NCBI GenBank assembly: GCA_035913415.1
Contig: JAMIIV010000207.1
Span: 23,498 to 87,497 of the forward strand
Direction: 5' to 3'
DNA from: Fibrobacteria bacterium
GTDB lineage: Bacteria > Fibrobacterota > Fibrobacteria > UBA5070
Length of the DNA: 64,000 bases
Shown here: piece by piece, positions 8,053 through 59,966 of the stretch
How the letters are laid out: each line of letters opens with the position of its first letter
Numbering within the stretch: the first letter of the stretch is position 1
Made by a program: the position numbers and the translations under genes
The notes under the pieces: generated by a model
Seen by the model: only the letters and a program-made list of their open reading frames with translations
What the model was told of the DNA's origin: nothing
Database searches by the model: none

Positions 8053-8117
8053 AAAAGCTCCGGGAATGGATCGATGATAGGAATCCGTTCCCCCGGTGCC
8101 AGCGTCCTCCGGTCTGA

Positions 8118-25841: not shown

Positions 25842-25912
25842 GCATGTCGGTCACCGATCTTGTGAACGCGTTGCCGCAAGCCTTGGACGAGATGGACGTG
25901 GACGGGGTTTCA
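25842..25912 (+). pseudogene. Degenerate duplicate of the 3' end of nnr (gene remnant)
   Basis: About 85% nucleotide identity to 24660..24730. In frame it encodes RRMSVTDLVNALPQALDEMD, compared with the Nnr C-terminus RRGMSVTDLVNALPQAWEEME. It has no own start codon or N-terminal domain. Confidence 0.5.
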
Positions 25913-25930
25913 CCGCCATGGCCCCGAAAT

Positions 25931-26419: not shown

Positions 26420-26518
26420 GTCGCGCTCCCTGAAGGGTGTCCAGGAGGCAGGATACCAAGGCCCGCGGGGAGCGACCAGCGAAGGGAGTCTCCCCGGGCA
26501 CCCCACCGACCTCGTCGG

Positions 26519-27412: not shown

Positions 27413-27418
27413 GATCGG

Positions 27419-28072
27419 TCAGAGCCCGCGGGAAAGAAGCTCGAGTTGCAGCACGCAGCGCTCGGCTTCCGGGACGCGCGGCACCAGCAGAAGCGCCCAG
27501 CCCGCGGACAAACCTCGTGCCTTCACCACACCGACCTCGGCCCCGGTGGCATCCAGCACCCGTGCCAACCCCGTGGCGGCGTCGAAGCGCACCGAGCCGG
27601 CGGGCACCCCGTCGTTTTCAACCTCCAGGAATCCTTCGCGCACCTTCACGACCACAGGTCGCGCGTTCTCCTCGTTGTCGCTGATCTTGACTTTGCCGTC
27701 CTTGAGCTTGACTTTCCACAGCAGGCGGGAATCGGGGCTCTTGAGCTTGAAGCCCTCGTCGCCCGGCTTGACCTCGCCGAGCGCGGCCCCTCCCACCTGG
27801 GCGTAGGCGCGTTTGCCGTCGTCGCGCAACTGGCCGCGAAGGACGCGGGACCGATCGGCCGGGCCGAGCACGGCCTCCAAGACGGATCCTGTCTTCAAGG
27901 TGGCCAGAACCGCACCGGAAGGATCGCGGACCTCGGCCGAATCGGCCGCCAGCGGGGCCGAGCTCCGGGCCGGGGTCTCAGCGGAGTTGGTGGCCTCGGC
28001 GGGTTCGTCCTTCTTCTGGCAGGAAGACAGGACCAGGGGGACGACGAGCAAGAGCAGGAAGCGGGCGTTCAT
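27419..28072 (-). CDS. Hypothetical lipoprotein
   Basis: Start at MNARFLLLLVVPLVLSSC (lipobox). ATGA overlap with the upstream GT4 stop. Confidence 0.55.
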   Translation of the reverse strand: MNARFLLLLVVPLVLSSCQKKDEPAEATNSAETPARSSAPLAADSAEVRDPSGAVLATLKTGSVLEAVLGPADRSRVLRGQLRDDGKRAYAQVGGAALGEVKPGDEGFKLKSPDSRLLWKVKLKDGKVKISDNEENARPVVVKVREGFLEVENDGVPAGSVRFDAATGLARVLDATGAEVGVVKARGLSAGWALLLVPRVPEAERCVLQLELLSRGL

Positions 28073-44923: not shown

Positions 44924-46251
44924 CGCGGCGGAAGCTCCCGCATCCGCTCGAGCACTCTCCGGGACACGAACCAGGCCCCCACACCGTCGGAGAGCGCCAT
45001 GCCGCGCCCGGTCAGCCGCAGGCGGTCGCCGTCGAGCACGGCAAGGTCCAGGCGGAGCAGTTCCGGAAGATCGGGGAAGTCCTGGAGAGCGTCCGTTCCG
45101 AACAGCCCGCGGTAGCGCGGCAGATCCAGGCCTGCGGACTTGAGGACGGACTTGATCAGGAATCGACGTTTTCTGTCATCGAGCGTCAGGCGGATCCCGT
45201 GGTCGGCCCGCGCGAAGTCCGCGGAGCCGCGCGCCAGGAAATCGCCCAGGATGACCTCGACCTCGTCCCGCCCCACGGCCCAATCCGTGGAGTAGTGCAC
45301 GTCGCGGGTATAGGATCGGGCCCCGGCCCCCAGGCCCACCATCCCGTCCTCCTGGCAGGAATACTCGGACGCCGCCGTCGGGGCGGTTCCCGGACGACAG
45401 AATCTGCGCAGCGAGTCCTGGACGTAGCCGGCTTCCAGCAGAACGCCACGCCCCGCCTCCAGCAAGGAGTCGATGCGCACCCCTTCCGGATCGTGCCGTC
45501 CTTCGCGCCTGTGGAGCGCGGTCAGGGGCCGCACGTACAGGGGATAGAGGAACAGTTCCGTGGGCGCATGGCGCAAGGCCGCGGCCACGCTGGCGCGGAA
45601 CGAGTCCTCGGTCTGTCCGCGCATGCCGTAGATGAGATCGATGTTGAACGCGGGAAACCCCTCCGCGGCCACCGCGTCCAGGAGGTTGTCCAGGGCGCGA
45701 TCGGGTCTCGGCCTGCCGAGCAGGCGGGCCTCGTCGGCGTCGAAGCTCTGGACCCCCAGGCTGAGTCGCTCCACTCCCGCCTGGCGCAGGAACCGGATCT
45801 TCCCGGGTGTGAGGGTGTCCGGCGACGCCTCGAAGGATCCCCCCCGGGCGGGATCGATCCCGAACACGGTACGGAGCATGCCCACCAAGCGCTCCAACTG
45901 GGCCGTATCCAGAAGGCTGGGGGTGCCGCCTCCGATCGCGTAGCCCGAGAAGGAGGCCCGACCGATGGACTCCCGCACCGCCGCCGCCTGCCTCTCCAGG
46001 GCCCCCAGATACCGATCGACCATTCCTTCGGAGGGCCGCGAGACGGACAGCAGGTTGCAGAAGGAGCATTTGCTGGCGCAGAAGGGGATGTGCGCGTAAA
46101 GGTACAGGGAGTCCTTCGGCTCGTCCCGCCACAGGCGCTCCAGCGGAACGCGTTCATCGAAAGGACGGTAGGCCGTCTTGTGGGGATAGGAGTAGAGGTA
46201 GGCCCAATCCGAACGGTCTCCGGACAGAAATTGCTCAAGCGACGGTGTCAC
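44920..46251 (-). CDS. Radical SAM protein, HemN/HemW-like (STM4012-family-like)
   Basis: YLYAHIPFCASKCSFCNL and GGGTPSLL motifs. Putative GTG start at 46249..46251, overlapping the sulfatase-like gene stop. The 5' part of the 752-aa ORF overlaps the upstream gene and was rejected. Confidence 0.65.
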   Translation of the reverse strand: MTPSLEQFLSGDRSDWAYLYSYPHKTAYRPFDERVPLERLWRDEPKDSLYLYAHIPFCASKCSFCNLLSVSRPSEGMVDRYLGALERQAAAVRESIGRASFSGYAIGGGTPSLLDTAQLERLVGMLRTVFGIDPARGGSFEASPDTLTPGKIRFLRQAGVERLSLGVQSFDADEARLLGRPRPDRALDNLLDAVAAEGFPAFNIDLIYGMRGQTEDSFRASVAAALRHAPTELFLYPLYVRPLTALHRREGRHDPEGVRIDSLLEAGRGVLLEAGYVQDSLRRFCRPGTAPTAASEYSCQEDGMVGLGAGARSYTRDVHYSTDWAVGRDEVEVILGDFLARGSADFARADHGIRLTLDDRKRRFLIKSVLKSAGLDLPRYRGLFGTDALQDFPDLPELLRLDLAVLDGDRLRLTGRGMALSDGVGAWFVSRRVLERMRELPPR

Positions 46252-47048
46252 GGCTGCTGGGCCCCATGGACAAATTCCGCGTAAGGCACGTTCCAGACGC
46301 ACTCGTGGGCGATCCGATGCCCCGTGTACCCCCCGTCGCCGTAGGCGGTGCCGTGGTCGGAGAGGAACAGGCACAAGGTGCGGCCTCGCGCCCGCAAGGC
46401 ATCCATGAGGGGAGGCAGGCAGCCATCGACATAACGCAGCGCGGCGGCATGGGATTCCATGGAATCTTCGGTGGCGCCTTCCAGGTGGTGCCGATTCGGC
46501 TGGTGCAGCGCCGAGACGTTCAGGAACAGGAAGACCTTGCGGTCGCGGCACCGTTCCAGGATTTCCAGAGCTTTGTCCACCTGGTACTCCGTCGAGCGGG
46601 GCTCCGTCACCCCGAAGCGCGGCTCCCAATGGCTTTCCTGGAACAGCCCGGGCAGGACCTGCGACAAGGCGTTTTCCTTCTTGAAGAACCCCACGCCCCC
46701 GATACATGCGGTGTGGTATCCCCGTTCGGCGAGGCCCGACACGATGTCGGGGGCGTCCAGGACCAGGGTGCGCGAGCCCGAAGTTTCGCTTCCGGAAAAG
46801 CGCAGGGCGAAAAGCCGCTCGTGGCGGCCCGGCGCGGCGGGCGTGGGGAGGAACCCCGCGAAGAAGGAACAGTGGGATGCCCACGTGAACGATCCCGGCG
46901 CATGGCGCCCTTCCCAGGCCTCCACCCACCTGTGCAGGTTCGGAGTCCGTCCGGCCTCCATCTCGGAGACCGCCACGTCCAGGCGCAGGGTGTCGAAGGT
47001 GACCATCAGGATGTCGTGGGTGCCCACGATCGCGTTCATGTCGAGCAA
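46248..47048 (-). CDS. Sulfatase/alkaline-phosphatase-superfamily hydrolase (STM4013/SEN3800-family-like)
   Basis: N-terminal LMVTFDTLRLD metal-binding region and the sulfatase-like fold motif FLSDHGTAYGDGGYTGH. Confidence 0.65.
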   Translation of the reverse strand: MLDMNAIVGTHDILMVTFDTLRLDVAVSEMEAGRTPNLHRWVEAWEGRHAPGSFTWASHCSFFAGFLPTPAAPGRHERLFALRFSGSETSGSRTLVLDAPDIVSGLAERGYHTACIGGVGFFKKENALSQVLPGLFQESHWEPRFGVTEPRSTEYQVDKALEILERCRDRKVFLFLNVSALHQPNRHHLEGATEDSMESHAAALRYVDGCLPPLMDALRARGRTLCLFLSDHGTAYGDGGYTGHRIAHECVWNVPYAEFVHGAQQP

Positions 47049-47701
47049 GGAAGGATCTCCTCGAGTTGGAGGATGCCGATGATGGCCGCATGGGGAAGCG
47101 GAAACACGCGGCGATGGAGGGGGTCCACGTGGACCGTTCCCATCCCCAGCGCCCGTGCCGGTTGGATGTCGCGCACAAGGTCGTCGCCCACCATGATCGC
47201 GGACGTCGGGTAGGCGCCTTCCAACGCGCGCAGGAACAACCGGGGATCGGGCTTCTCCATGCCCTGCTCGCCCGAGATCCAGACCGATTCGAACAGATCG
47301 TCCAGATCGGCGTAAGACATTTTCCGTCTCTGCGTGTCGCCCGCCCCGTTGCTGACCAGGCGCAACGTGTGGCGCGTCGAAAGTCTCTCGAGCATGGCGC
47401 GCACCCCAGGCAGAGGCCGCACCCGATCCGGGAGTGTCGTGTGGTGGCGTCGCAGGTCGGACATCGAACCTCCCAGCTCGGGTACCAGCTCCAATGCCCG
47501 CGTTAGGAAGGCGTCGCGATCGGTCCGCCCCCGGTCGTCGGCCCGCACCAGATCGGCCAAGGCGCGGCAGCCGCGAGGGGAATCGGGATCCGTCCCGGTC
47601 TGGACCAGGAGTTCCCGGAACAGATCATCGAAGGCGGCGTCGCGATCCAACAAGGTGTTGTCGAGGTCCAGCAGGAGCAGCGAAATCCCGGACTTTGTCA
47701 T
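47036..47701 (-). CDS. HAD-superfamily hydrolase (subfamily IA)
   Basis: Motif I LLLLDLDNTLLD. Motif III/IV region IMVGDDLVRD. ATGA overlap with the upstream gene. Confidence 0.75.
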   Translation of the reverse strand: MTKSGISLLLLDLDNTLLDRDAAFDDLFRELLVQTGTDPDSPRGCRALADLVRADDRGRTDRDAFLTRALELVPELGGSMSDLRRHHTTLPDRVRPLPGVRAMLERLSTRHTLRLVSNGAGDTQRRKMSYADLDDLFESVWISGEQGMEKPDPRLFLRALEGAYPTSAIMVGDDLVRDIQPARALGMGTVHVDPLHRRVFPLPHAAIIGILQLEEILPCST

Positions 47702-48819
47702 GGGAGGTCCGTCTTGGTGCCAAGCCGGCTAAGCTCCAGCTCCCAGGGATCCAGGCCTTCGTGTTTCAGGCCGGGGAGCAGATCGCCGAAAGCGTTGGCC
47801 TCCAGCACAAGAGGCCGCACCGGTGCTTCCGGAGAGCCGGCGGGAACGACGACGTCGAGCCCCGCGTACAGACTTCCAGGCAACCGCTCCAGGGTCTCTT
47901 CGACCACGCGCTCCACGGCCTCCCACACCCCCCGAGACAGACCGAGCCCCTCGGGGTCCAGGCGGTGGTTGCCCAGATGGAGGTTCGTCATGGGGCCACG
48001 GGAGAGTCGCGCGATCCGGTGCGCAGGTTTGCCCGCCACCCCGAGGACCCGCAGATCCCAGGCCATGCCTCGAAACGACGGCTTGGGGATCCAGGGTTCG
48101 ACGAACGCCCCTTCCGAGAAGAGGAAGTCCAGCACCTGCGTGATGCGATGCGGGTCGCGGTATTCCCGAAGCCGCAGGGAGTTGTAGAAGCGCGGTTGTC
48201 CGTCGGGGTCGGCCATCTCCAGAGTGGTGCGCAGCACCTGCCTGCCGGTGGAACGCTGCGCGCGCCAGGCGGCCACCCCGCTGGCCGACGAGGCCGCGGG
48301 CAGTTTCACGAAGACTCCGCACGCCCCCGATTCCTCGGCCCACCGCGAGAATTCCGCGGACGAGCCGAAAGTCCCCAGGGTGGGGGGCGCGAGATCGCCC
48401 AGGAGGCGCTTGAATCCGGGTTTGTCGAACATCGCGACGATGTCCGAGGGGGAATTGAACCAGGTCACCCCGCACACCTCCCCATCGCGTTCCAGCGACT
48501 CCATGTAGGCGCAAAAGCCACGAAACCAGGCCGAGGGATGCAACAGGCGCCCCCGCTCCTCGGGGATGCTCCCGGCCTCGGGAATCCCTCCGAGAGACAG
48601 AATCTGGCATTCCACGCCATGGTTCTCGCCCGTGGATTCGATCCGCACCACCGTCCCCGACCGCACGTGTTCCCGGAGGGTGGTCCGGCCCGCGAGCAGG
48701 TCGGAATGCGACACCACTCTGGCCGGATTCCATCCACGCCGGCACACCGCCCCCTGGAAGAGGGACAGCCGGCGGTTTTCCGGGTTGGCCAGGACCAGCA
48801 GGTCGGGAGATGCGCCCAA
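47698..48819 (-). CDS. ATP-grasp-like protein (STM4014-family-like)
   Basis: ATP-grasp fold features: GVFVKLPAASSASGV and LVLEANAFGDL. There is no in-frame ATG; a TTG at 48817..48819 just after the WGR-LRR stop is proposed. The start is uncertain. Confidence 0.5.
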   Translation of the reverse strand: MGASPDLLVLANPENRRLSLFQGAVCRRGWNPARVVSHSDLLAGRTTLREHVRSGTVVRIESTGENHGVECQILSLGGIPEAGSIPEERGRLLHPSAWFRGFCAYMESLERDGEVCGVTWFNSPSDIVAMFDKPGFKRLLGDLAPPTLGTFGSSAEFSRWAEESGACGVFVKLPAASSASGVAAWRAQRSTGRQVLRTTLEMADPDGQPRFYNSLRLREYRDPHRITQVLDFLFSEGAFVEPWIPKPSFRGMAWDLRVLGVAGKPAHRIARLSRGPMTNLHLGNHRLDPEGLGLSRGVWEAVERVVEETLERLPGSLYAGLDVVVPAGSPEAPVRPLVLEANAFGDLLPGLKHEGLDPWELELSRLGTKTDLP

Positions 48820-48824
48820 GAAGC

Positions 48825-49901
48825 CTATTCCGTGACGGCGGGGTAGCGCCAGGCGTCTTCGCCTTCGCCATCGGCCTCTTGTTGGTCGGAGACGTCGATG
48901 TTCCGCCCCGTGGCCTTGAACTCCTTGACCATGGCGTCCGAGAGGTAGTGGTAGTGCAGATCGAGCCGCTTCAAACGTTGGACACCGGGGGAATCCAGAA
49001 GGGCGCGACCTCCAACGTCGGTGAGCGTGCCCTGCGACAGGTCGAGCACGTCGAGCTGCCCGAGGACTTCGGCCCCGGCGATCGCCGCGGCGATTTCGTC
49101 GGCGATTTCGCTGTCGACCAGTCCCAGGCTCCGCAGCGAAGGAAACAAGCCCTTGCTGAAGAACGGGCGCAGGTCGTCGAGGGAGCCGTCGAAGCCGTAT
49201 TCGTCGACACCCAGATACAGCTCCAGATGCTGGAGCGCCGGCAGGCGCGCCGCCGCCAGCAGATGGAGAATGACCTTGGGCAATCCACCGCAGCGGATCA
49301 CGAGCTTGGTCAGCGAATCGTGGGCGATGGGGTCGCGGCTGAGCACCAAGCTGCTCGAACCCTGGATGCGCAAGGATTCCAGACCCGGGAAGGCCGCCAG
49401 GACCCCCGTGTAATCGGCCTGGATGATCCAGGAGATCTCGCATTCCTCCGAGTCCATGTCTCCGACGATGATTTCCTTGAGGCCCGGCAGGCGCGCCGCG
49501 TGACGGCAGAGCAGATCGAGAGCGGCCTGGGGGGAATTCTCCTGCGGCTCCTCCCACGAGGCGATCACCAGGGAATCGACGCCGCTGGCCCCATCGCTTT
49601 CCAGGAACGCTTCCATCTTCGACAGGAGGGTCTTGCCCTCTTCCGCTTCGTCGTAGCTTACCGCGAGGCGTCGCGAGATCTTCTTCTCGCTGGCCTGGGC
49701 CACCTCGACGTAACCCTTCTTGACCTTCTCGGCGACCAGCTTGTCGCGCTCCTTGGTCGCCTTTTCTGGCGATTCGCAGGTGGTGGTCTTGGCCTGCCCT
49801 GCGGTCCCGATCCGACCGAAGGTGACGGTGAACGCGGACCCTTCCAGTTCAATCTGCCAGAATTTGTGCGAGGTGCCGTCTTTGAATTCGAGGTAGGTCA
49901 T
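48825..49901 (-). CDS. WGR-domain plus leucine-rich-repeat protein (STM4015-family-like)
   Basis: Start at MTYLEFKDGTSHKFWQIELEGSAFTVTFGRIG, a WGR domain. C-terminal LRR-like repeats (LxxLxLxxN/D patterns such as LKRLDLHYHYLSD). Confidence 0.7.
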   Translation of the reverse strand: MTYLEFKDGTSHKFWQIELEGSAFTVTFGRIGTAGQAKTTTCESPEKATKERDKLVAEKVKKGYVEVAQASEKKISRRLAVSYDEAEEGKTLLSKMEAFLESDGASGVDSLVIASWEEPQENSPQAALDLLCRHAARLPGLKEIIVGDMDSEECEISWIIQADYTGVLAAFPGLESLRIQGSSSLVLSRDPIAHDSLTKLVIRCGGLPKVILHLLAAARLPALQHLELYLGVDEYGFDGSLDDLRPFFSKGLFPSLRSLGLVDSEIADEIAAAIAGAEVLGQLDVLDLSQGTLTDVGGRALLDSPGVQRLKRLDLHYHYLSDAMVKEFKATGRNIDVSDQQEADGEGEDAWRYPAVTE

Positions 49902-50102
49902 CGGGATCGGCCTTCCGGAGGGGGATAAGGAGGATCTGGCTGAGGCCGCCGCTGTCGAGAACGAGCGACTGTTGCAGCCGGGGTCAGGGACCTCGAATAT
50001 AGGCTCGCGCACACCCGCATCGAGAGCCCTGGTGCCCGCGGCCGAAAACGGGCTCACCGCGCCTGGAGGAGGGCCCGAGCCCTTGCCGAACCGAGGATGG
50101 AA

Positions 50103-50717
50103 TCAGGCGCTGCAGGGAGTGCAATGGTTGTCGACCCACGGGTGCCACCCGCCGTCGAACCAGACGAAGTACATGCGTAGCTGGTCCCACCCCTTGGCGA
50201 CAAAGACGACCTGCATCACCCGCCAAGGCTTGGGCACGGGAAGCCACGGCACCACGAACTCAAGGTCGCCATCCTTGCGCCAGTGGCCGAATTTCGGGAG
50301 ATCGCGGGGCTGGACCGGATCCCAGAAAAAGCCCTGGTGGCCGCGATACGGGCCGGCGTCGTCACAAGGATTCTTCACGGCGGGGATACCCCGACGGATG
50401 GTGATTCGGGTGTCCGGCGGTATGACCTCCGTTCCGTCCATGATATCCTTCCCCACCTGCGTCGACGGGTAATCCAGAACACAGCTCGCCCCCGGGTTGT
50501 CGGCCGTGCGGTAGGGAAGTTTGGGATGAATCCACCGACTGGCCTCCTTGCGGCTTCGGCGGTAGGTCTCCAGGTATTCCTTCAGAAACTGCGGGAAGAC
50601 CGAATCGGGGTCTCGCCCGATCGAGTCCCGCAGGACGATGCGTGGTTCGGGATCGCGCGGAGCCACGATCGCCGTGTCCGAGGCTCCCGCCAGCAACAGG
50701 AGAAGAGAGAGGATCAT
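50103..50717 (-). CDS. Small secreted hypothetical protein
   Basis: Start at MILSLLLLLAGASDTAIVA, a signal peptide. The ATG overlaps the rtcR stop (ATGA). Cys-containing. WHPW near the C-terminus. Confidence 0.45.
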   Translation of the reverse strand: MILSLLLLLAGASDTAIVAPRDPEPRIVLRDSIGRDPDSVFPQFLKEYLETYRRSRKEASRWIHPKLPYRTADNPGASCVLDYPSTQVGKDIMDGTEVIPPDTRITIRRGIPAVKNPCDDAGPYRGHQGFFWDPVQPRDLPKFGHWRKDGDLEFVVPWLPVPKPWRVMQVVFVAKGWDQLRMYFVWFDGGWHPWVDNHCTPCSA

Positions 50718-52327
50718 GGACGCCTCGGGGAGGAAGAGTCGTGCGCTTCGGACCAGGAAAGTCCGAAGCGGCCAAGGTACTTGCGCAGCCGATCGGAATC
50801 GTTGGGGCTTTCCTTGCGCTCGCGCGAAACGGAGAACAGGCATCGCCCCGCCTCTGCCATCGTGGCCGACGAACGGCAGACTCCCAGCACGTGCGCCAGC
50901 TGCACCCGATCGAACTCGTCCAGCCGTCCCACGCGGGACGGGACGACGGATTCCGTCACGGGATCGCCGGCGCGGATCCACGAGCGTTCCAGACGTTCGA
51001 TTTCTTCGTCCACGTTCGGCTTGGTGATGCGGCCGTCCGACAGCAGCGCCATGCGCGTCACCGCCGCGGCCAGGTCGCGGAAATTCCCCTTCCACGAAGC
51101 ACGCGCCGAGGTCCCCCACTCCAGGAAGCGCTCGCGCGCCTCGCGGGTGATCGAAACCTGGCGTCCTTCGCGTGCACGCAACCGTTCCAGCTCGTACTCC
51201 AGATTGGGCTCCAGGTCGGCCGGCCGGTCGGCCAGTCCGGGCAGGGCGAAGGTCCACAACTGGATGCGCGCCAGGAGGTCTTCGCGGAATCGCCCGCGCG
51301 CCACCTCGGCCCCCAGATCCTTGTGCGATCCGGCCAGAAGCAGGAAATCGCTCTCGACTTCCCGATCCGAACCCACGGGGCGAAAGCGTTTCTCTTCCAG
51401 GGCCACCAGAAGCATCGCCTGCTCTTCCAGCCCCAGCTCGCCGATCTCGTCCAGGAACAGGATCCCCCGGTCGGCCGCACGCAGATAACCGGCCCGATCC
51501 CCTACCGCCCCGGTGAAGGCTCCTTTCACGTGCCCGAAGAGGGCCGACATCGCCCCTTCGCCGGCCAGGGTGGCGCAATTCACCGCGACGAACTCGCCGG
51601 CCACCAGCCCCCGCTGGCGGCGCAGTTCGTGGATGCGCCGCGCCAGGCTCGATTTGCCCGATCCGGTGGGTCCACCCAGCAGGATCGGATCGCGCGACCG
51701 GGAGGCCACGACTTCGATGCGCTCGATCAGGCGGTTGAACGCCTTGTCGCGGGTGCGGATGCCGTCCTTGAGGAAGTCGCGCCGGTCGCGGATGTCTTCG
51801 CGGAAGCGCGAGGCGATGCGGTCGTACCTGGACAGATCGAGATCGATGAGGGAGATGCGGCCGGGCAGCGATTTGTCGTTGCCCTCGGGGGGACTGGTCT
51901 GCAGGAGACGCCCCGGCAGGAAACGCGCCTCGGTGAGCAGGAACAGGCAGATCTGGTGGACATGGCTGCCCGTGGTGATGTGCACCAGCAGGTCTTCCCG
52001 CGCAGGATCGAAGGCCAGGCGGCGCGACAGGTCCAGGAGCACCGAGTAGACCGCCTCGAAGTCCCACGGATCGTGGGCGGGCAGGATCTCGCAGACCACG
52101 TCCATCCCGGGGCGCAGTTGGCGCAGATCGGAGGCCACCACCTCACCCAGCTCGCGGAACTTCTCCTGGAACAGCAGATGGTAGCGATCGAAGGGAGGGT
52201 CGTCGTGCCGGGCCAGATCGACCGTGGGACGCCACCGATCCCAACGTTTACGCCCCATGCCCCCGTCGAGGACCGTGCCGAGGATACCGATGCCCACGAG
52301 GGGCCTGGAAGTCGTTTTGCGCGTCAT
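50714..52327 (-). CDS. rtcR: Sigma-54-dependent transcriptional regulator RtcR (CARF domain, AAA+ and HTH)
   Basis: Start at MTRKTTSRPLVGIGILGTVLDGG. Strong similarity throughout to E. coli RtcR as recalled, including Walker A GPTGSGKSSLARRI and the GAFTGA motif. Confidence 0.85.
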   Translation of the reverse strand: MTRKTTSRPLVGIGILGTVLDGGMGRKRWDRWRPTVDLARHDDPPFDRYHLLFQEKFRELGEVVASDLRQLRPGMDVVCEILPAHDPWDFEAVYSVLLDLSRRLAFDPAREDLLVHITTGSHVHQICLFLLTEARFLPGRLLQTSPPEGNDKSLPGRISLIDLDLSRYDRIASRFREDIRDRRDFLKDGIRTRDKAFNRLIERIEVVASRSRDPILLGGPTGSGKSSLARRIHELRRQRGLVAGEFVAVNCATLAGEGAMSALFGHVKGAFTGAVGDRAGYLRAADRGILFLDEIGELGLEEQAMLLVALEEKRFRPVGSDREVESDFLLLAGSHKDLGAEVARGRFREDLLARIQLWTFALPGLADRPADLEPNLEYELERLRAREGRQVSITREARERFLEWGTSARASWKGNFRDLAAAVTRMALLSDGRITKPNVDEEIERLERSWIRAGDPVTESVVPSRVGRLDEFDRVQLAHVLGVCRSSATMAEAGRCLFSVSRERKESPNDSDRLRKYLGRFGLSWSEAHDSSSPRRP

Positions 52328-52417
52328 TCTATCGCACAGGATAGATCCTATGCCTTGCGATATCAATGCACCCCGATCCGGGCACACGTTTCTCCGACGG
52401 ATCCGCGCGACAACGAT

Positions 52418-52433
52418 TGGCACGCCCTTCGCA
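52418..52433 (+). promoter_or_regulatory. Sigma-54 (-24/-12) promoter TGGCAC-N5-TCGCA
   Basis: ttGGCACgccctTCGCA differs from the consensus TGGCAC-N5-TTGCA at one position. It lies divergent from rtcR and about 20 nt upstream of the tRNA-like RNA, as expected for an RtcR-dependent promoter. Confidence 0.5.
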
Positions 52434-52453
52434 CTTGAAGTGGAATACCGAAA

Positions 52454-52671
52454 GGGGAGGTAGCTCAAACGGAAGAGCACCGGAAAAACGTTGGACAACG
52501 GCACTGTAACAGGCACCGCGAACCGCAAGGTCGCCGGGCAGGGTTGCGGAGGCACCTATAGCGGCCTCGAAGGGTCATCACTCCCCCGAGGTGGGTGAAG
52601 CAGCAAGGGAAGCGCGTTTCCCAAGAGCCTGGCTTGTCGCGGCGATGCGGGTTCGATCCCCGTCCTCTCCA
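52454..52671 (+). ncRNA. tRNA-like structured RNA (about 218 nt) at the 5' end of the rsr operon; candidate Y-RNA-like or processed leader
   Basis: The 5' end GGGGAGG-TA-GCTCAAACGGAAGAGC gives a 7-bp acceptor 5' strand and a canonical D-arm. The 3' end GCGGG-TTCGATC-CCCGT-CCTCTCC-A gives a T-arm and a complementary acceptor 3' strand. An approximately 165 nt insert sits where the anticodon arm should be. Confidence 0.4.
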
Positions 52672-52703
52672 CTTTCTCGAATTCCACAGCAAGGATCATC
52701 ACC

Positions 52704-54275
52704 ATGCCCAATCTCGAACTGTTCAAGACCATCGCGGGCAGACTCATCCCCGCCACCGATACCCGCAACGCAGCGGGCGGCGTTGCGTACACCCGCTCCC
52801 CCAAGTCGGAGCTGGCCCAGCTGGCGATGACCGGATGCCTCAACGGCACCTTCCATGCCCAGGCCGAAGTGCAACTGGAGGCCATCCTCAAGCGCACTGC
52901 GGAGATCGATCCCGCCTGGATCGCCAAGCTGGCCCTGGTGGCCCGCAAGAAGGGCCACATGAAAGACGTTCCCGCCCTGCTGCTGGCGACCCTCGCCGTC
53001 CGCGACCGGGACAGCGCGGCGACCGCGTTTCCCCTGGTGATCGACAACGCCCGGATGCTGCGGACCTTCGTACAGATCGTCCGCTCGGGAGCCGCGGGAC
53101 GCAAGTCCTTCGGCTCGGCGCCCCGGCGCTGGATCCGGCAGTGGCTGGAATCACGGACTCTCGAACAGCTCCTGGACGCTTCGGTAGGCAACCAGCCCTC
53201 GCTCGCCGACATCGTGAAGATGGTCCATCCCCGGCCCGACGGTCCCGAGCGCGAAGCCTTCTACGGCTGGCTCTTGGGCAAGGAGGTCGCGACGGACACG
53301 CTTCCCGAGCGGGTGCGGGCCCTGCTGGCCTGGCGCGACGGAGACCGGGAAACGGTCCCCGAAACCGCGTTCGAACTCCTGACCGATCGGCCCCTGTCCA
53401 CCGGATCCTGGGCGGCCATCGCCCGCCGCGCCGGCTGGCAGTGGACGCGCATGAACCTCGCCACCCTCGCGCGGCACGGCGTGTTCGCCGATCCGGCGAT
53501 GGTGGACCTGGTGGCCGCCCGGCTGCGGGATCCGTCTCTGATCGCCCGGTCGCGCGTCTTTCCCTACCAGATCCTGTCCGCCTGGAAGGCGGCCGGGACC
53601 GACCTCCCCTCTGTCGTCCGCGACGCCCTCCAGGACGCGCTGGAACATGCGGTAGAGAACGTTCCCGCCTTCGCGGGGAAGGTGGTCGTCCTGCCCGACG
53701 TCTCCGGCTCCATGCACAGCCCCGTCACCGGATTCCGTCCGGGTGCGAGCTCGGCCACGCGCTGCGTGGACGTCGCCGCCCTCTTCGCCGCCGCCATCCT
53801 GCGGCGCAACCCTTCCGCCACCGTCATCCCCTTCAAGGAAGACATCGTGAACCTCGTCCTGAATCCTCGCGATTCCATCAGCACCAACGCCGAGCGCATG
53901 GCTTCCGTGGGCCCCGGCGGGACCGATTGTTCGGCCCCGCTGCGGCACCTGAACCAGCGCAAGGCCAAGGCCGACCTGGTCGTATTCGTCTCCGACAACG
54001 AGTCGTGGATGGACCCCGCCCGGGGACGCTGCACCACCACCCTGCGGGAATGGGAAACCTTCCGCGCCCGCAATCCCGGCGCCCGGCTGGTGTGCATCGA
54101 CCTGGCCCCCAACACCACGGTGCAGGCGCCCGATCGGCCCGACATCCTCAACGTAGGAGGCTTCTCCGACCAGGTCTTCGGACTGGTGGGGGAATTCGCC
54201 TCCGGCGGTCTGGAAGCCGGCGCCTGGGAGACGCGCATCGAACGGGAGGGAGAACGCCTCTTGAACGCGGCGTAG
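52704..54275 (+). CDS. rsr: Ro60 ortholog Rsr (TROVE domain plus vWA domain)
   Basis: Protein-like composition across about 520 aa. The architecture recalls bacterial Ro (TROVE-like helical N-region, DVSGSM-type vWA MIDAS motif VVLPDVSGSMHSP). Confidence 0.8.
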   Translation: MPNLELFKTIAGRLIPATDTRNAAGGVAYTRSPKSELAQLAMTGCLNGTFHAQAEVQLEAILKRTAEIDPAWIAKLALVARKKGHMKDVPALLLATLAVRDRDSAATAFPLVIDNARMLRTFVQIVRSGAAGRKSFGSAPRRWIRQWLESRTLEQLLDASVGNQPSLADIVKMVHPRPDGPEREAFYGWLLGKEVATDTLPERVRALLAWRDGDRETVPETAFELLTDRPLSTGSWAAIARRAGWQWTRMNLATLARHGVFADPAMVDLVAARLRDPSLIARSRVFPYQILSAWKAAGTDLPSVVRDALQDALEHAVENVPAFAGKVVVLPDVSGSMHSPVTGFRPGASSATRCVDVAALFAAAILRRNPSATVIPFKEDIVNLVLNPRDSISTNAERMASVGPGGTDCSAPLRHLNQRKAKADLVVFVSDNESWMDPARGRCTTTLREWETFRARNPGARLVCIDLAPNTTVQAPDRPDILNVGGFSDQVFGLVGEFASGGLEAGAWETRIEREGERLLNAA

Positions 54276-54597
54276 GGCGGAGTGGAAAGGCGCGACGAAT
54301 ACCGCGGCGGTCTACACTTGGACCTGGCATCCATTCCGGAGCGCGGGGGAAGATCCCGCAGGAGCCGCAAGGCTCCCGAGGCGTCGCCAGAGGACGCACC
54401 AGGCGGCGAAAGCCGGCAGACCACGCAATCCTTGTCGCCGCGCCCCCTCCATCCTCCCAACGCCCCTGACCGGGGGCGCCCGAGACGAATACCGGACGGG
54501 AGTCCATCCTCCACCTCCGCCGCGCCGCCCCGGGAGGGGCGGCACCCCGACTCCGGGGCAGGCACCTCCCCCCACCCTTGTCGTCCTGGGCGCTCCT

Positions 54598-54705
54598 TCT
54601 TTGGCGCGGAAGAATGCTGGACGGGAATCCATTGGTCAACACCTCCGTTTGCAAGAACGGTGGTGTGGGTTCAAGTCCCAAATCCCTCCACACCTTGTCT
54701 TCCGC
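54598..54705 (+). ncRNA. Candidate small structured RNA (second Y-RNA-like element)
   Basis: Terminal helix GGCGCGGAAGA / TCTTCCGCGC enclosing about 88 nt. The enclosed region has a T-loop-like GGTTCAAGTCC hairpin (GGTGTGG...CCACACC) and a CCGTTtgcaagaAACGG hairpin. CTTTTTCC follows. Confidence 0.25.
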
Positions 54706-54750
54706 GCTTTTTCCCTTTCCCGGGGCCCTCGAGGGGGCCCCACCCCTGTG

Positions 54751-54900
54751 CCCCCCCTTATGTCGAATGCCGGACAGGTGTACATCACACGTGTCGGTGC
54801 CGGGTTCGATTCCCGGCGCGGCCACTCTTCGGCCGCGTAGCTCAGTGGTAGAGCAACCCCGCTTCGCGGGCCACTTGTCCACCCTTGTCGACATTCGGGG
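54751..54900 (+). ncRNA. Candidate Y RNA (YrlA-like) with permuted tRNA-like module
   Basis: Terminal stem CCCCttATGTCGA / TCGACATtcGGGG with a 2x2 internal loop. The interior holds a T-arm (CCGGG-TTCGATT-CCCGG), an acceptor-like stem CGCGGCC-ctcttcg-GCCGCG capped by a loop, and a D-arm (GCTC-AGTGGTAGA-GAGC). Confidence 0.5.
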
Positions 54901-54924
54901 ATACTTCCTTTGGAGACACATCCC

Positions 54925-56148
54925 ATGAACCATCCCGAAATCTTCCAGCCCTCCCGTGGCGGCCTCGTGAAGGCCTGGACCCGCGGCGTCTTGTTCGAGG
55001 ACGAAGCCCGCCGCCAGGTGGAAAACGCCGCGAGCCTCCCCTTCATCCACAAGTGGGTCGCCATCATGCCCGACGTGCACGCCGGGAAGGGCGCCACGGT
55101 CGGATCCGTGATCCCCACCCTCGACGCCATCGTTCCCGCGGCCGTGGGTGTCGACATCGGTTGCGGCATGATGGCCGTGCGCACCTCGCTGAATGCCCGC
55201 GACCTTCCCGACAATCTGGCCTCCCTCCGGTCGGCCATCGAACGCGCCGTCCCCCATGGGCGCACCGACAACGGGGGCCGCAACGACCGCGGCGCCTGGA
55301 ACACACCTCCCGAGGCCGTCCGTTCCGCATGGGACTCCATGAGCCCCATCTTCGACCAGATCCGCGAGAAGCACCCGAAGATCGGGGCCTCCAACTCCTG
55401 GAACCACCTGGGAACCCTCGGGACGGGCAACCACTTCATCGAAGTCTGCCTGGACACGACGGATTCCGTCTGGGTGATGCTGCACTCCGGATCGCGCGGC
55501 GTGGGCAACCGGATCGGGTCGTACTTCATCGAGAAGGCCAAGCGCGAGATGGAACGCTGGCACATCCACCTTCCCGACGCCGACCTCGCCTACCTGCCGG
55601 AAGGCTCGCAGCATTTCGGCGACTACGTGAAGGCCCTGAAGTGGGCGCAAGGCTTCGCGATGAAGAACCGGGAACTGATGATGGACGCCACCCTGGCGGC
55701 CCTGGCGTCGCTGCCCGGGATCCCGCCCTTCGAACGCACCCTGGACGCGGTGAACTGCCACCACAACTACGTCGACCGCGAGCACCACTTCGGCAAGGAC
55801 GTGTGGGTCACCCGCAAGGGTGCCGTGCGCGCCCGCGATGGCGAAATGGGGATCATCCCCGGCTCCATGGGAACCCGTTCGTACATCGTGCGCGGCAAGG
55901 GCAACCCGGACAGTTTCTGTTCGTGCTCGCACGGCGCGGGTCGGGCGATGAGCCGTACCGAAGCCAGACGCCGCTTCACCCTGGCAGACCATGAACGCTG
56001 GACCGCGGGAATCGAATGCCGCAAGGACGCCGAGGTGATCGACGAGACCCCCGGCGCCTACAAGGACATCGACGCCGTGATGGAGGCGCAGAAGGACCTC
56101 GTGGAGGTCGTGCACACGCTCCGGCAGGTGGTCTGCGTGAAGGGCTGA
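54925..56148 (+). CDS. rtcB: RNA-splicing ligase RtcB
   Basis: Start at MNHPEIF. Matches E. coli RtcB as recalled (MPDVHAGKGATVGSVIPT, GVDIGCGM, GTLGTGNHFIE, NCHHNY, SCSHGAGR). Confidence 0.9.
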   Translation: MNHPEIFQPSRGGLVKAWTRGVLFEDEARRQVENAASLPFIHKWVAIMPDVHAGKGATVGSVIPTLDAIVPAAVGVDIGCGMMAVRTSLNARDLPDNLASLRSAIERAVPHGRTDNGGRNDRGAWNTPPEAVRSAWDSMSPIFDQIREKHPKIGASNSWNHLGTLGTGNHFIEVCLDTTDSVWVMLHSGSRGVGNRIGSYFIEKAKREMERWHIHLPDADLAYLPEGSQHFGDYVKALKWAQGFAMKNRELMMDATLAALASLPGIPPFERTLDAVNCHHNYVDREHHFGKDVWVTRKGAVRARDGEMGIIPGSMGTRSYIVRGKGNPDSFCSCSHGAGRAMSRTEARRRFTLADHERWTAGIECRKDAEVIDETPGAYKDIDAVMEAQKDLVEVVHTLRQVVCVKG

Positions 56149-56173
56149 GGGGGTTCCGGGACTCGAAAGGTAG

Positions 56174-56743
56174 GTGGCCAGGACTACCTTCGAGAGACCG
56201 ATGCAGACTCCGCACCCTTCCCGAACTCGCGTCACGATCGTCGCCACCGCGGCGATGCTGGTGTGCGTCGGCTGCGCCCCCGCCCCCATCCTGGTTCGGA
56301 CCTCGGTCACCCAACCCGATGTATTCTTGCGCCCGGACTCTTCCTGCCCGATCCCCGCGATCCGGTTTCGCGCCGACGGCTCGATCTCCCCCGTGCAGGG
56401 GACGGACGGCCATCTCGATCGTTGCCTGATCTCGTTCCCGCAGCCCGATCGACGAGGCGTGGTGGTCGAGCTTTCGGGCGTGAGTGATCCCTGCCGCACG
56501 GGAACGCTGCGCCGCGCGTGGATGGTGGCCCGATCCGACTCTGATTCCCTGATCCTCGGCACGCCCACGCCATCCTCCCGCGCCGAGATCCGAACCGAGC
56601 CCGACGTTCCGGACGATCCCGAGCTGCGCTGCCGGGTTCTCGATTCGAGCCTGGCCTTGGTCGAGGTCGTGATGTCGGATTCCGTCGTGGCACGCACCTG
56701 TTTCGCCGACGACAAAACGGGATTCCGAAGGTGCCTTCCGTGA
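56174..56743 (+). CDS. Hypothetical lipoprotein
   Basis: Signal peptide/lipobox TIVATAAMLVCVGC. The start may be at MQTPHPS (56201). Confidence 0.45.
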   Translation: MARTTFERPMQTPHPSRTRVTIVATAAMLVCVGCAPAPILVRTSVTQPDVFLRPDSSCPIPAIRFRADGSISPVQGTDGHLDRCLISFPQPDRRGVVVELSGVSDPCRTGTLRRAWMVARSDSDSLILGTPTPSSRAEIRTEPDVPDDPELRCRVLDSSLALVEVVMSDSVVARTCFADDKTGFRRCLP

Positions 56744-57447
56744 AGCCCTCCCACCTTCTCGCGGCGGGGATCGTCGCGGCCTTCGTGCTGCAGGGTTGCG
56801 CGACCCTCGTCGCCCTGTCCACGGCCGAGCGCATCCCGTTGCGGGAGGAGCGGATCCATCGTTGGGACTCGACCGGATCACAAGACCGAATGCTCCGCGC
56901 GACGCTGGAGGGGCGGACCGCGGACAGTGCCGGGCCGTCGCTGTGGAAATTCGAAGGTGCCGACATCTGGCTTCTGTGGCCGTCGTCGGGCAACCCCGTT
57001 GTGTTGTCGGACTCCCGCGATTCGCTGGACCACCACCTCAAGACGCGCCCGGGATGGGACACGACGGGAGTCGACACGATCGATGTCTACCTGATGTCCG
57101 ACACCACCGCCCGCGTCCCACCCGCCCTGCTGTCCGGCGCCGGTCGCCAAGCCATCGCGCTTTGGAGTCGGCCACGCTCCTCCGTGGACTGGAAGCCCGC
57201 CTGGGCCCTGCGCCTTCGGGACCGGACCCCGGTGATGGAGCCCCTGGTCTGGATCGGGCACCCGCGATTCAACCCTCTCGTGTGGGGGTGGGTGGTCGTG
57301 CCTGGTGGCGTCGCGGTCGACGTCGCGGCCTGGCCCCTGTACGTGGCAGCCTGGCATGTGGCGCAACCCGCGCTTCTTCCCGTGGCGGGCGGCATTCTCG
57401 CACTCGGATTCCTCGTCGCCTACCTCATGCGGGACTGGCACTTCTAG
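56731..57447 (+). CDS. Hypothetical lipoprotein with C-terminal hydrophobic segment
   Basis: N-terminal LAAGIVAAFVLQGC lipobox. C-terminal PVAGGILALGFLVAYLM. Confidence 0.45.
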   Translation: MPSVKPSHLLAAGIVAAFVLQGCATLVALSTAERIPLREERIHRWDSTGSQDRMLRATLEGRTADSAGPSLWKFEGADIWLLWPSSGNPVVLSDSRDSLDHHLKTRPGWDTTGVDTIDVYLMSDTTARVPPALLSGAGRQAIALWSRPRSSVDWKPAWALRLRDRTPVMEPLVWIGHPRFNPLVWGWVVVPGGVAVDVAAWPLYVAAWHVAQPALLPVAGGILALGFLVAYLMRDWHF

Positions 57448-57505
57448 GCGGCTTCCCACGGACAATCCGCTGGCCCAGCGCACCCGCGACGAGCCTCCGC
57501 TCGGC

Positions 57506-58156
57506 TCACTCCGCCAGGTTTCGGCGATTCCGGGCCCGCCACCACCCGTGCAACCCATCCACCAGGCCCCACAGAACAGATCCCGCCACGGCCAGGGCCA
57601 TGTCCTTGTGGGCGTCCCAGGGATCGCCCTGCTGCCCGTTGTATCCCTCGGCGGCATCGGCCGAAAGGAGCAGCGTCAACGCCCATTCGAACAGTTCGTA
57701 GGCCAGGCTCGCGGCGGCCACCCATTGCACCACCAGGAGTCTGGCCGTGCGGGGCCGCGTCACCACGCGACGGAATCCGTCCATCAGGCGCGGCGACACC
57801 AGCACGCCGAACAGAAGATGTACCAGCCGGTCGAAATGGTTGCGCTCCCACCCGAACACCTCCGACAAGGTGTGCCCCGCGAGACTCCGGGCCCAGGTGT
57901 CGTAGGGCACGTACGAGTAGATCCAGCGCGCCGCGAACGCGTGCAGGAACATGAACCCCATCAGACAGCGGGAACTGGCCGTCGAGGCCGCACCTCGCGC
58001 GATTCCCGAAGCGATCCAGGCCGCGACCACGAGGGTCCCCGCGTGCTGCAGCGGCATCATCTCCGGATAGGGACTACCGATCGCCAGCGCCAGGCTTCCG
58101 GCCGACGCCACACCCAACTCGATCCAGGACTTCCGAAGCGAGGGCTTGGTGCTCAT
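57506..58156 (-). CDS. DUF2238-family (YjdF-like) inner-membrane protein
   Basis: Multi-TM protein. The FGWERNHFDRLVHLLFG region matches my recollection of DUF2238. Confidence 0.55.
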   Translation of the reverse strand: MSTKPSLRKSWIELGVASAGSLALAIGSPYPEMMPLQHAGTLVVAAWIASGIARGAASTASSRCLMGFMFLHAFAARWIYSYVPYDTWARSLAGHTLSEVFGWERNHFDRLVHLLFGVLVSPRLMDGFRRVVTRPRTARLLVVQWVAAASLAYELFEWALTLLLSADAAEGYNGQQGDPWDAHKDMALAVAGSVLWGLVDGLHGWWRARNRRNLAE

Positions 58157-58635
58157 GGAGCGTCGGGCATCTCGAAGACCTTCAGCGACTTGGCCATGCG
58201 CCCGATTTTGCCGTCGAAGAGCGGCCGATCCTTGTCCTGGTACTCGAGCTGGAAGACCACCCAGCGCCCTTGGGCGAGCTGCCGTCGTTCATAGACGATG
58301 CGCCCCTTGCGAAAGCCCGACACCACGCACCAGTCCTTCTTGGTCGTGCGCAGCACGACGGAATCGATTTCGGACGCATCGAAATCGCACGCCTCACCGA
58401 GGGTTTCCTCGGCGGCGTTCCACATTCCCCAGACGCGGATCTCCGCTCCCGTCGAACCCCGCCACGTCCGCCCATCGTCGTTTTCCGGCGGAGGCATTTC
58501 CTTCAATCCCGCCGGCACGTCCAGGCAGAAGGCGAAGCGCGCGTTGCAGTGGTTCACGTAGTCCTCGCGGGCGCCGGACGCCGAGGCAAGCAATGCGAGG
58601 GACAACAGGAATGCGGACAAGGCAGGAACAGACAT
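58153..58635 (-). CDS. Secreted hypothetical protein
   Basis: Start at MSVPALSAFLLSLALLASASG, a signal peptide. The upstream 5' part of the ORF is low-complexity and was rejected. Confidence 0.45.
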   Translation of the reverse strand: MSVPALSAFLLSLALLASASGAREDYVNHCNARFAFCLDVPAGLKEMPPPENDDGRTWRGSTGAEIRVWGMWNAAEETLGEACDFDASEIDSVVLRTTKKDWCVVSGFRKGRIVYERRQLAQGRWVVFQLEYQDKDRPLFDGKIGRMAKSLKVFEMPDAP

Positions 58636-58924
58636 GGGAAGAATCTCCGCTGGAGGATTCGCCGGCCGGGCCATTTCCGGGAGCGCCGAAAGATAGGCCC
58701 GCCCTGCAGGCCTGCTGCGGGGGGGCGGAAAGCGTAGGTCGCCCCAATCTCGCTCTTGGAAGACAATGACCGAAGTGAACCTCGCCCAGGTCCAGCCGCC
58801 GGATTCGACGGGACCTCCGTCGGGGGAATGCGATCGCTCAAGCGGCATTCCGCGCGGGGCACCACCGACGATGGCGCATATGAGAATGTATCTCATTTGC
58901 GCTGTCACGCAGAACGGAGCGCCC

Positions 58925-59332
58925 ATGAAGATCACCATCGAAACCCTCGTCGCCGCATCCATCGAACGCGTATGGGAGGCGTGGAACTCTCCCACCGACA
59001 TCGTGTCGTGGAACTTCGCCTCCGACGACTGGCGTTGCCCCTCGGCCCATGTGGACTTGCGCGTGGGCGGCACATTCGGAGCCAGGATGGAAGCCAAGGA
59101 CGGCTCCTTCGGCTTCGACTTCGAAGGCACCTATACCGTAGTGGACCACCTGCGGCGCCTGGAATACCGCATGGCAGATGACCGGACCGTGCAAGTAACC
59201 TTCGAGCCCGAGGCCGAAGGCGTCCGCGTCCGCGAGAGTTTCGATACCGAGGACACCAACGCCGCCGAGATGCAACGGGCCGGTTGGCAGGCCATCCTCG
59301 ACAATTTCCGCAAATACGTGGAAGCGGGCTGA
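58925..59332 (+). CDS. SRPBCC-superfamily protein (AHSA1/activator-of-Hsp90-ATPase-like)
   Basis: Start at MKITIETLVAASIERVWEAW. Typical SRPBCC N-terminus. Length 135 aa. Confidence 0.6.
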   Translation: MKITIETLVAASIERVWEAWNSPTDIVSWNFASDDWRCPSAHVDLRVGGTFGARMEAKDGSFGFDFEGTYTVVDHLRRLEYRMADDRTVQVTFEPEAEGVRVRESFDTEDTNAAEMQRAGWQAILDNFRKYVEAG

Positions 59333-59378
59333 CAGGCGGAACGAGGGCGTGCATCGAAGTCCTCGAGGCCGCTCTCCC

Positions 59379-59966
59379 TCACCACCGAACCCCCATCATC
59401 ACGCCCATGCGGAAATCGGGGTCCCACTCGTAGCGGAAATCGGAATGTTTCAGGTCGTCGGACGCACGCCCGGTCAACGACCAATCGTGGTGCGCCAATC
59501 CCCACCGAGCGTAGGGCTCCATGGTGGCGTGTTCGAAAAGTCCCCAGGTCAGGCCGCCCTCGATGCCTGCCGCCCAGGTCTCCACGTGCTGGCGGAAATC
59601 GTCCGAACCCCAGTCCCGGCGATCCTGGTAGGCGAAGGTGATGCGCCGCCAGCGACCATAGGCACCCAACTTCAGAGACCGCCATCCTGGTTCGTCGAAA
59701 GGGCGCATCCAGGCACTGGCCCAGAGGCCGCCCCCTCGCACCTGGACATCACCGGTTTCTTCGTCCACCCAACCGTTGAAGTTGGCGTACTCGCGATCCA
59801 TCCATTCCGGAGCAAGCCCCACACCCCATCCGTCGAACTCGTGGCCCACCTGCACGATGTGCGACTTCGTCTTTTCCAGCACCGGTCCCAGCAGGTCGTA
59901 CTGCACCTGCCACGCGCCACAGGTGCCGACCACGACCAGTGCCAGTGCAATTGCCCTGCAGTTCAT
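59379..59966 (-). CDS. Putative outer-membrane beta-barrel protein
   Basis: Signal peptide MNCRAIALALVVVGTCGA. W/Y-rich amphipathic strands and a terminal aromatic residue. Confidence 0.45.
   Translation of the reverse strand: MNCRAIALALVVVGTCGAWQVQYDLLGPVLEKTKSHIVQVGHEFDGWGVGLAPEWMDREYANFNGWVDEETGDVQVRGGGLWASAWMRPFDEPGWRSLKLGAYGRWRRITFAYQDRRDWGSDDFRQHVETWAAGIEGGLTWGLFEHATMEPYARWGLAHHDWSLTGRASDDLKHSDFRYEWDPDFRMGVMMGVRW

Follow-up and report, generated by a model that had tools for sequence, protein, structure and literature searches.

An RtcR-controlled Ro and RNA-ligase operon without rtcA in a Fibrobacteria bacterium, with four Y RNA modules and a tRNA-like leader RNA

Here, we analysed an RNA-repair locus in a 64,000-nucleotide stretch from a Fibrobacteria bacterium (Fibrobacterota, UBA5070; GenBank assembly GCA_035913415.1, contig JAMIIV010000207.1, positions 23,498 to 87,497 of the forward strand), hereafter referred to as the window. 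The locus is composed of rtcR on the minus strand, a sigma-54 promoter divergent from it and, on the plus strand, a tRNA-like leader RNA that we named TL-X, the Ro60 gene rsr, a Y RNA spacer of 649 nt and the RNA ligase gene rtcB. It is a true member of the known RtcR/Ro/RtcB operon type, minus RtcA. Beyond the known architecture, it has a Y RNA array of four classes and, above all, a member of the TL-X family captured under RtcR control. An earlier note on this DNA, made from the sequence alone, had pointed out the locus, and its claims are taken up below where the results bear on them.

The operon and its protein genes

The positions of the features are given in Table 1. RtcR scored 710.7 bits with the NCBIfam model NF038308 (cut-off 650), matched the Pfam families RtcR, which is the CARF domain, and Sigma54_activat, and is 54% identical to RtcR of E. 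coli, so that its description in the earlier note as a CARF-AAA+ sigma-54 activator is borne out. In the related locus L001, rtcR has the same length and position. Rsr matched the Pfam families TROVE and vWA_Ro60 and aligned over its full length with Rsr of D. radiodurans (2NVO; E = 3.8e-30), as expected of the Ro60 ortholog that it had been taken for. It has 7971 homologs at E ≤ 1e-20, many of which carry the JGI name '60 kDa SS-A/Ro ribonucleoprotein'. The NCBIfam Rsr model gave it 122 bits against a cut-off of 900, and the protein is distant from the enterobacterial and Deinococcus type. RtcB scored 441.7 bits with PF01139 and is 60% identical to RtcB of E. coli, in agreement with its earlier reading as an RNA ligase; an NCBI record exists for the exact 407-amino-acid product, and the gene probably starts at the ATG at 54925 rather than at the TTG at 54910.

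Table 1 Features of the locus and of the neighbouring gene, in window coordinates.
Feature	Position	Strand	Size	Description
Neighbouring ORF	50103..50717	-	204 aa	N-terminal hydrophobic stretch; ATG overlaps the rtcR stop codon (ATGA, 50714-50717)
rtcR	50714..52327	-	537 aa	CARF + AAA+ sigma-54 enhancer-binding protein
Candidate sigma-70 promoter of rtcR	52338..52366	-		TTGATA-17-TATCCT; promoter scan
Sigma-54 -24/-12 promoter	52418..52433	+		TGGCACG-N4-TCGCA (TGGCACGCCCTTCGCA); motif scan and conservation
TL-X leader RNA	52454..52672	+	219 nt	Helix map, covariance model R1, covariation
rsr	52704..54275	+	523 aa	Ro60 ortholog (TROVE ring + vWA)
Y RNA module a	54289..54445	+		Terminal stem GGCGCGACGA/UCGCCGCGCC with GAAUAC / CCUUGUC; z = -2.49
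Y RNA module b	54475..54595	+		Long terminal stem GACGAAUAC / CCUUGUCGUC; two distal hairpins; z = -2.23
Y RNA module c	54604..54708	+		Terminal and second stem, variable hairpin, T-arm-like hairpin (GUGGGUUCAAGUCCCAA); z = -4.78
Y RNA module d	54760..54897	+		YrlA-type; GUCGAAUG motif, T arm, closed 7-bp acceptor-like hairpin, D arm; z = -4.22
rtcB	54925..56148	+	407 aa	3'-phosphate/5'-OH RNA ligase; Shine-Dalgarno GGAGA 9 nt upstream

The gene rtcA, which the earlier note had reported as lacking from the window, is indeed absent: a tblastn search with E. coli RtcA over the 64 kb gave a best E of 1.9. Furthermore, no match at E ≤ 0.001 was found in the fetched flanks of loci L001-L020, which include all rsr-rtcB relatives. 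Among the features that define an RtcR-regulated rtcBA operon, the divergent CARF/AAA+ RtcR, the sigma-54 promoter and rtcB are thus present and an adjacent rtcA is missing. Those of the subtype with rsr, Y RNAs and rtcB are also found, namely a Ro60 ortholog and Y RNAs on the same strand within a few kb of rsr. Loci L001-L009 share the same order, rtcR followed by a divergent rsr, a spacer and rtcB, and Fib_succ_major genes adjoin related loci. The GC content of the cassette (0.669) equals that of its flanks (0.663 for the window as a whole), so there is no sign of a recent foreign origin.

Only two sites in the window fit TGGCACG-N4-TTGCW with ≤1 mismatch (0.51 expected in 64 kb), and one of them is the near-consensus -24/-12 promoter that had been proposed opposite rtcR. 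It is conserved as TTGGCACG-N4-T[CG]GCA, invariant in seven loci (the window, L001, L006, L002, L003, L005 and L008) in which Rsr identity is only 68-94%. From the usual -12 spacing, transcription is predicted to start at about 52443-52446. The sigma-70-like site TTGATA-17-TATCCT is probably the promoter of rtcR; its -10 box ends 11 nt before the rtcR ATG, and the rtcR mRNA would therefore be nearly leaderless. A palindromic block, ATCnnnCAGGATAGnnCTAT at 52331-52351, overlaps this site and is kept in seven loci, and it may also be the binding site of RtcR. A scan of the window found no terminator-like site from the sigma-54 promoter to the end of rtcB, and since none separates the genes, a single transcript would carry TL-X, rsr, the four Y RNAs and rtcB.

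The Y RNA array and the leader RNA

The spacer between rsr and rtcB is made of four tandem Y RNA modules, each opening with xxGAAU[AG]C and closing with CCUUGUCxx, with mutually paired flanks. The Ro-site signature of the modules is 5' GNCGAAU and 3' CUUGUC, and the terminal stem that carries it covaries in all four classes; the motif described for the 5' strand of bacterial Ro sites is GNCGAAN0-1G (Chen 2014, PMC4201824). When the window was searched for this composite site, the plus strand gave five matches and the minus strand none; four of the five follow one another head to tail in the spacer, and 0.02 are expected per shuffled window. The earlier note had proposed two structured RNA candidates here; structured Y RNAs are present, their number being four, of four classes. 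ARAGORN, and Rfam at its gathering thresholds, detected no structured RNA in the whole window, and Rfam was then used in E-value mode (E ≤ 10). The covariance check that had been suggested for YrlA thus gave nothing at the gathering thresholds and a match in E-value mode.

This match is to module d, which aligned end to end with the Rfam YrlA model RF02553 (47.1 bits, E = 9e-9, model positions 1-114); the model also matched the last module of each relative, and the counterparts in five relatives scored 42-52 bits. Module d has the layout of YrlA (RF02553; Chen 2014, PMC4201824), with GNCGAAN0-1G in the GNCGAAUG motif near the 5' end, a terminal stem, and the permuted order of T arm, closed acceptor and D arm. 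The acceptor-like stem has 7 bp, as in the YrlA of M. smegmatis that is cleaved by RNase P. In an alignment of ten YrlA-type units, 16 of 28 pairs show compensatory changes, located in the terminal stem, T arm, acceptor-like hairpin and D arm. Judged by sequence and covariation, module d is a permuted tRNA mimic of the YrlA type. Modules a to c share the 5' half of the YrlA layout and differ from it further on. In modules a and b this half is followed by unrelated GC hairpins without tRNA-like parts. Module a, which has several such hairpins and no T arm, has a terminal stem that covaries with L007, and in module b 11 of 34 pairs are compensatory over five loci. Module c has the YrlA layout without acceptor and D arms, keeping the T arm only. 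Its terminal stem covaries in six loci, the 5' strand reading GCGCGGAAGA in the window, GGUUGGAAAA in L007 and GUCCGUGAAA in L003, and the module weakly matched the tRNA-Sec model (18.6 bits in E-value mode).

The number of units differs between relatives. L007 has six Y RNAs, L002 has four, of which two are YrlA-type, L003 and L008 have two each, and L005 has one unit and a remnant, which suggests that the array arose by tandem duplication and loss. The remnant, 30 nt at L005:5591-5620 (UCCGUGGAUGCCCCCUUGUUCACGGA), stands at the place of a full module-c Y RNA in L003 and L008, and only the terminal stem is left, the distal part being cleanly deleted. Modules a (54297) and b (54487) show a parallel G-to-A change in two paralogs, GAAUAC instead of the GAAUGC of L001 and L006, and GAAUACC recurs in the 5' leader (52443), immediately ahead of TL-X. 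Between modules c and d, at 54709-54759, there is a strong GC hairpin, GGGGCCCUCGAGGGGGCCCC, which L001 and L006 do not share and which has no U-run after it.

The leader RNA TL-X has the body of a tRNA and an additional domain. The body consists of a 7-bp acceptor stem with G3.U70, a 4-bp D stem, the nucleotides U8, A14 and G18G19, a canonical T arm (GCGGGUUCGAUCCCCGU) and the discriminator A73; the window copy does not encode CCA. The anticodon position is taken by a 4-bp stem whose loop is A-rich (GAAAAACG), and that of the variable arm by a conserved multi-helix insert of ~130 nt. No Rfam model matched the window copy at E ≤ 10, the Rfam tRNA model was silent on TL-X, and the family is absent from Rfam 15; ARAGORN found neither tRNA nor tmRNA in the window or in close relatives. 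A covariance model, R1, was built from six members, starting from a hand-built structure followed by model-based realignment, as a plain MAFFT alignment with RNAalifold gave a poor structure. It found a single copy in the window with 231 bits; other members scored 52-237 bits, while true tRNAs reached ≤37 bits, tRNA-Ala being the highest. Covariation was measured on an alignment of 17 members that had been fitted to the model. In this alignment, the share of paired cells is 91.7%, compared with 73.8% after shuffling, both partners have changed in 37 of 56 pairs, and the covariation score is 0.419 compared with ≤0.124 when the partners are slid by 1-3 columns. G3.U70 is found in 10 of the 15 members that have both ends. 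An outer stem predicted around TL-X (GUGGAAU/AUUCCAC) was dropped, since its register is not conserved in L001 or L006.

Comparison with known RNAs sets TL-X apart from each of them. Acceptor, D and T arms and the core nucleotides of a tRNA are present, but the 5-bp anticodon stem, the 7-nt loop with U33 and the ~75-95 nt length are not, the family having a 4-bp stem and a loop of 10-20 nt at the anticodon position. With tRNA-Ala and the tRNA-like domain of tmRNA it shares G3.U70, A73, the 7-bp acceptor stem and the canonical T arm; it differs from both in the insert at the variable-arm position, from tmRNA in its real D arm, and it has neither the 7-nt anticodon loop nor a tag frame. A tmRNA was rejected despite the alanine-type ends, since no tag frame is conserved in the aligned sequences; the variable position of GGANGC is non-synonymous. 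The copies that encode CCA gave end-to-end tmRNA matches of 20-26 bits, compared with the Rfam threshold of 47, and the window copy gave none. Class II tRNAs also have an extra domain at the variable-arm position, with the elbow nucleotides intact as in TL-X, but the insert of TL-X is ten times any natural variable arm and has an invariant core of its own. A group I intron in a tRNA gene was also rejected, as the insert is too short and lies outside the anticodon loop, and no Rfam intron model matched. The tRNA-like leader of the earlier note has thus a real tRNA-like body, although it belongs to a separate and wider family: on its sequence and covarying structure, TL-X represents a family with a tRNA-Ala-like body and a conserved insert, and is neither a tRNA nor a simple mimic.

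Distribution of TL-X and loss of the cassette

L001 and L006 have nearly identical copies of TL-X, and the conservation of TL-X in L007 exceeds that of the Y RNAs. In L002, L003, L005 and L008, the ribosome-binding site of rsr directly follows the promoter. The 5' UTR of these relatives (AGUGGACAGAAAGGAGCC..AUG; L003:3965-4000) seems to continue into the 5' end of the window TL-X (AGUGGAAUACCGAAAGGGGAGG; 52440-52460). Possibly TL-X was inserted where the ribosome-binding site used to be, and a new site (AAGGA) lies downstream of it.

Outside the operon lineage, exact-pattern scans with the invariant core found TL-X in three Deinococcus genomes, seven metagenome contigs and six IMG/VR contigs (48-424 kb), and blastn found it in two Pseudomonas megaplasmids; GenBank phage records gave no blastn match. 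Phage, plasmid and several metagenome copies lie within arrays of 3-29 tRNA genes. In the 910-kb megaplasmid of Pseudomonas sp. FeN3W (CP136011.1; L020), TL-X at 859079-859314 ends an array of 21 tRNA genes and is followed by a tyrosine integrase, and the IMG/VR copies (L021-L026) lie inside tRNA arrays of phage contigs of up to 424 kb. In Deinococcus and Deinococcus-like contigs (L010, L011, L013 and L019), TL-X stands alone near purF. In the Deinococcus-like contigs, reading by eye found a -10-like box 5' of the RNA and a hairpin with a U-run after the encoded CCA, and such promoter- and terminator-like flanks would mark a trans-acting RNA. Most of the Deinococcus and Deinococcus-like, L020 and IMG/VR copies have G3.U70, A73 and an encoded CCA. 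The copy of Deinococcus yunweiensis (L012:2164-2445) has a 70-nt insertion in the D loop relative to D. rufus, and represents a gene in decay or else a second site of insertion. No rsr, rtcB or rtcR was found by tblastn on the fetched flanks of the copies outside the operon lineage, and the neighbours in Deinococcus (purF, a short-chain dehydrogenase, an epimerase and an AadA-like gene) gave no functional hint. The literature searched, a scope that did not extend to Burroughs and Aravind 2016, holds no description of TL-X, and the family is apparently previously undescribed.

The cassette as a whole is a presence/absence polymorphism. A contig from another sample (Logan SRR22387946_307946; L028) is 98% identical to window positions 56155-59888 and 95% identical to 46103-50909, and lacks 50910-56154, a stretch with the greater part of rtcR and with TL-X, rsr, the Y RNAs and rtcB. 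What remains is the final 196 nt of rtcR, followed in this list by a scrambled filler of 69 nt with an 18-nt rtcR fragment, and the small ORF next to rtcR. Since a near-identical strain has lost it, the cassette is dispensable. The same contig bears on the small ORF, for which the earlier note had proposed a signal-peptide protein translationally coupled to rtcR. The ATGA overlap is real and is identical in L001, but the ORF was kept in L028 when the cassette was lost, and it is therefore a neighbour and not a component of the system. Its product has no Pfam or NCBIfam match, and no entry of its own was found for it in the contig index. A WGR-domain protein is encoded just downstream of it (48825-50057, minus strand), and the pair is also found in L028. 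Elsewhere in the window, several very large ORFs (for example 21898-24801, 25664-28132 and 5749-8748) have no Pfam match.

A proposed RNA damage response

The closest known system is the rsr-yrlBA-rtcBA operon of Salmonella Typhimurium (Chen 2013; Hughes 2020, PMC7790460), whose arrangement the earlier note had seen reproduced here. The operon type is indeed the same, with a divergent CARF/AAA+ RtcR, a sigma-54 promoter, rsr as the first gene and Y RNAs on the same strand between rsr and rtcB, one of them YrlA-type. The window locus differs in having four Y RNAs and not two, and TL-X ahead of rsr, and in lacking rtcA.

The best explanation of the whole, and one that we consider probable, is an accessory RtcR-gated RNA damage-response operon, in which roles can be proposed for TL-X, the Y RNAs and RtcB. 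By analogy with the Salmonella and E. coli systems, the CARF domain of RtcR would sense 5' tRNA halves ending in 2',3'-cyclic phosphate, and RtcR would then oligomerise and open the sigma-54 promoter at 52418-52433. RNase P would free the 5' end of TL-X from the transcript, and tRNA 3'-end enzymes, followed by CCA addition, would form its 3' end. As every core feature of a tRNA is present, TL-X should undergo processing of the tRNA type, and the acceptor stem with G3.U70 and A73 makes it a candidate substrate of AlaRS; cutting by RNase P and attachment of CCA have been reported for the YrlA of M. smegmatis (PMC4201824). The four Y RNAs would be excised and bound by Rsr at the shared terminal helix (5' GNCGAAU / 3' CUUGUCG), and with four differing distal modules they would connect Rsr to as many different partners or targets. 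Finally, RtcB would reseal the broken RNAs. RtcA could be dispensable for ligation, since metal-independent nucleases directly leave the cyclic phosphate, which would supply both signal and substrate.

Several points weigh against this explanation or parts of it. In Salmonella, RtcA contributes to activation, and the window locus has no RtcA. The score of module d is below the gathering score of the Rfam YrlA model (47.1 compared with 69 bits), which leaves it outside that family by the threshold. Modules a and b read GAAUAC in the window and thus miss the final G of GNCGAAN0-1G, which L001 and L006 have. The window copy of TL-X folds no better than shuffled sequence (z = -0.42), so that the support for its fold is comparative, and comes from the alignment that was fitted to the model. 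Moreover, the more distant operon relatives L002, L003, L005 and L008 (Rsr 68-76% identical) lack TL-X, and the function of the operon therefore does not depend on it.

The role of TL-X is the least supported step of the mechanism. Our best guess is an inducible tRNA mimic that would work together with the Y RNA of the YrlA type and could serve the tRNA-cutting nuclease as a decoy or as a sentinel substrate. Alternatively, the tRNA body may act as a stable scaffold on which the conserved insert is offered to a protein, by analogy with tRNA bodies that are used as scaffolds for other RNAs. In the most far-reaching reading, TL-X would be a new alanine-type tRNA-like class with the insert as its working part, and its place under RtcR and sigma-54 control would imply a part in the tRNA-damage response, as decoy or sentinel, or as an alanylated adaptor for Rsr or RtcB. 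We put this forward as a tentative idea that may well be wrong.

TL-X might instead be a fifth ligand of Rsr, like an inside-out YrlA, its Ro-binding site being located in the closing helix of the insert (5' CACCGCGAA ... CUUGUCGCGGCG 3'). In the TL-X of the window, L006 and L007, this helix is flanked by CGCGAA and (C/U)UUGUCGCG (CGCGAA ... CUUGUCGCG in the window), matching the motif pair of the Y RNAs, and copies unlinked to rsr, in Deinococcus, phages and plasmids, have other sequences at the closing helix and no CUUG there. However, L001 has CGCGGG in place of CGCGAA, the motif does not fit GNCGAAN0-1G, and the four rsr-linked copies are so closely related that they amount to one evolutionary observation. 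Other family members have CUUG where an extra hairpin was lost, and the match to a Ro site may therefore be an accident. We regard an Rsr ligand of this kind as improbable.

A cis-acting element of the 5' UTR, a riboswitch or attenuator controlling the translation of rsr, would agree with the location of TL-X, which follows the promoter and precedes the ATG of rsr at a distance of 32 nt. It is nevertheless very unlikely, as TL-X carries full tRNA processing signals, as relatives operate the same operon without it, and as it occurs elsewhere as a stand-alone gene with promoter- and terminator-like flanks or in tRNA arrays without a downstream ORF. Least credible of all is the reading of TL-X as a tRNA or tmRNA pseudogene in decay that carries a junk insertion, and of modules a to c as meaningless GC-rich hairpins: the silence of ARAGORN and of Rfam at gathering thresholds and the modest z-scores of modules a and b would suit it, but it is already largely refuted by covariation in TL-X and the Y RNAs. 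No part of TL-X is more conserved than the insert over GC contents of 39-69%, and the insert shows compensatory changes. Neither a conserved reading frame nor a stop codon fit for a tmRNA tag was found, and the terminal stems of modules a to c covary and keep the Ro-site motif in relatives with Rsr only 70-81% identical.

In Rtc operons, the role of Rsr and of the tRNA-like parts of Y RNAs has been left as speculation (Hughes 2020, PMC7790460). The locus described here places two kinds of tRNA mimic, the permuted YrlA type and the non-permuted TL-X, together with three further classes of Y RNA, under one damage-sensing promoter. Its relatives form a natural comparative series, in which TL-X is missing (L002, L003), the number of Y RNAs goes from one to six, and the whole cassette is lost (L028). 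TL-X itself looks like an unannotated and structurally well-supported RNA family that has an AlaRS identity element and is found in the tRNA arrays of phages and plasmids. If it does act in a tRNA-damage response, a single RNA would connect phage tRNA arrays with Ro and Y RNA biology and with RNA repair.

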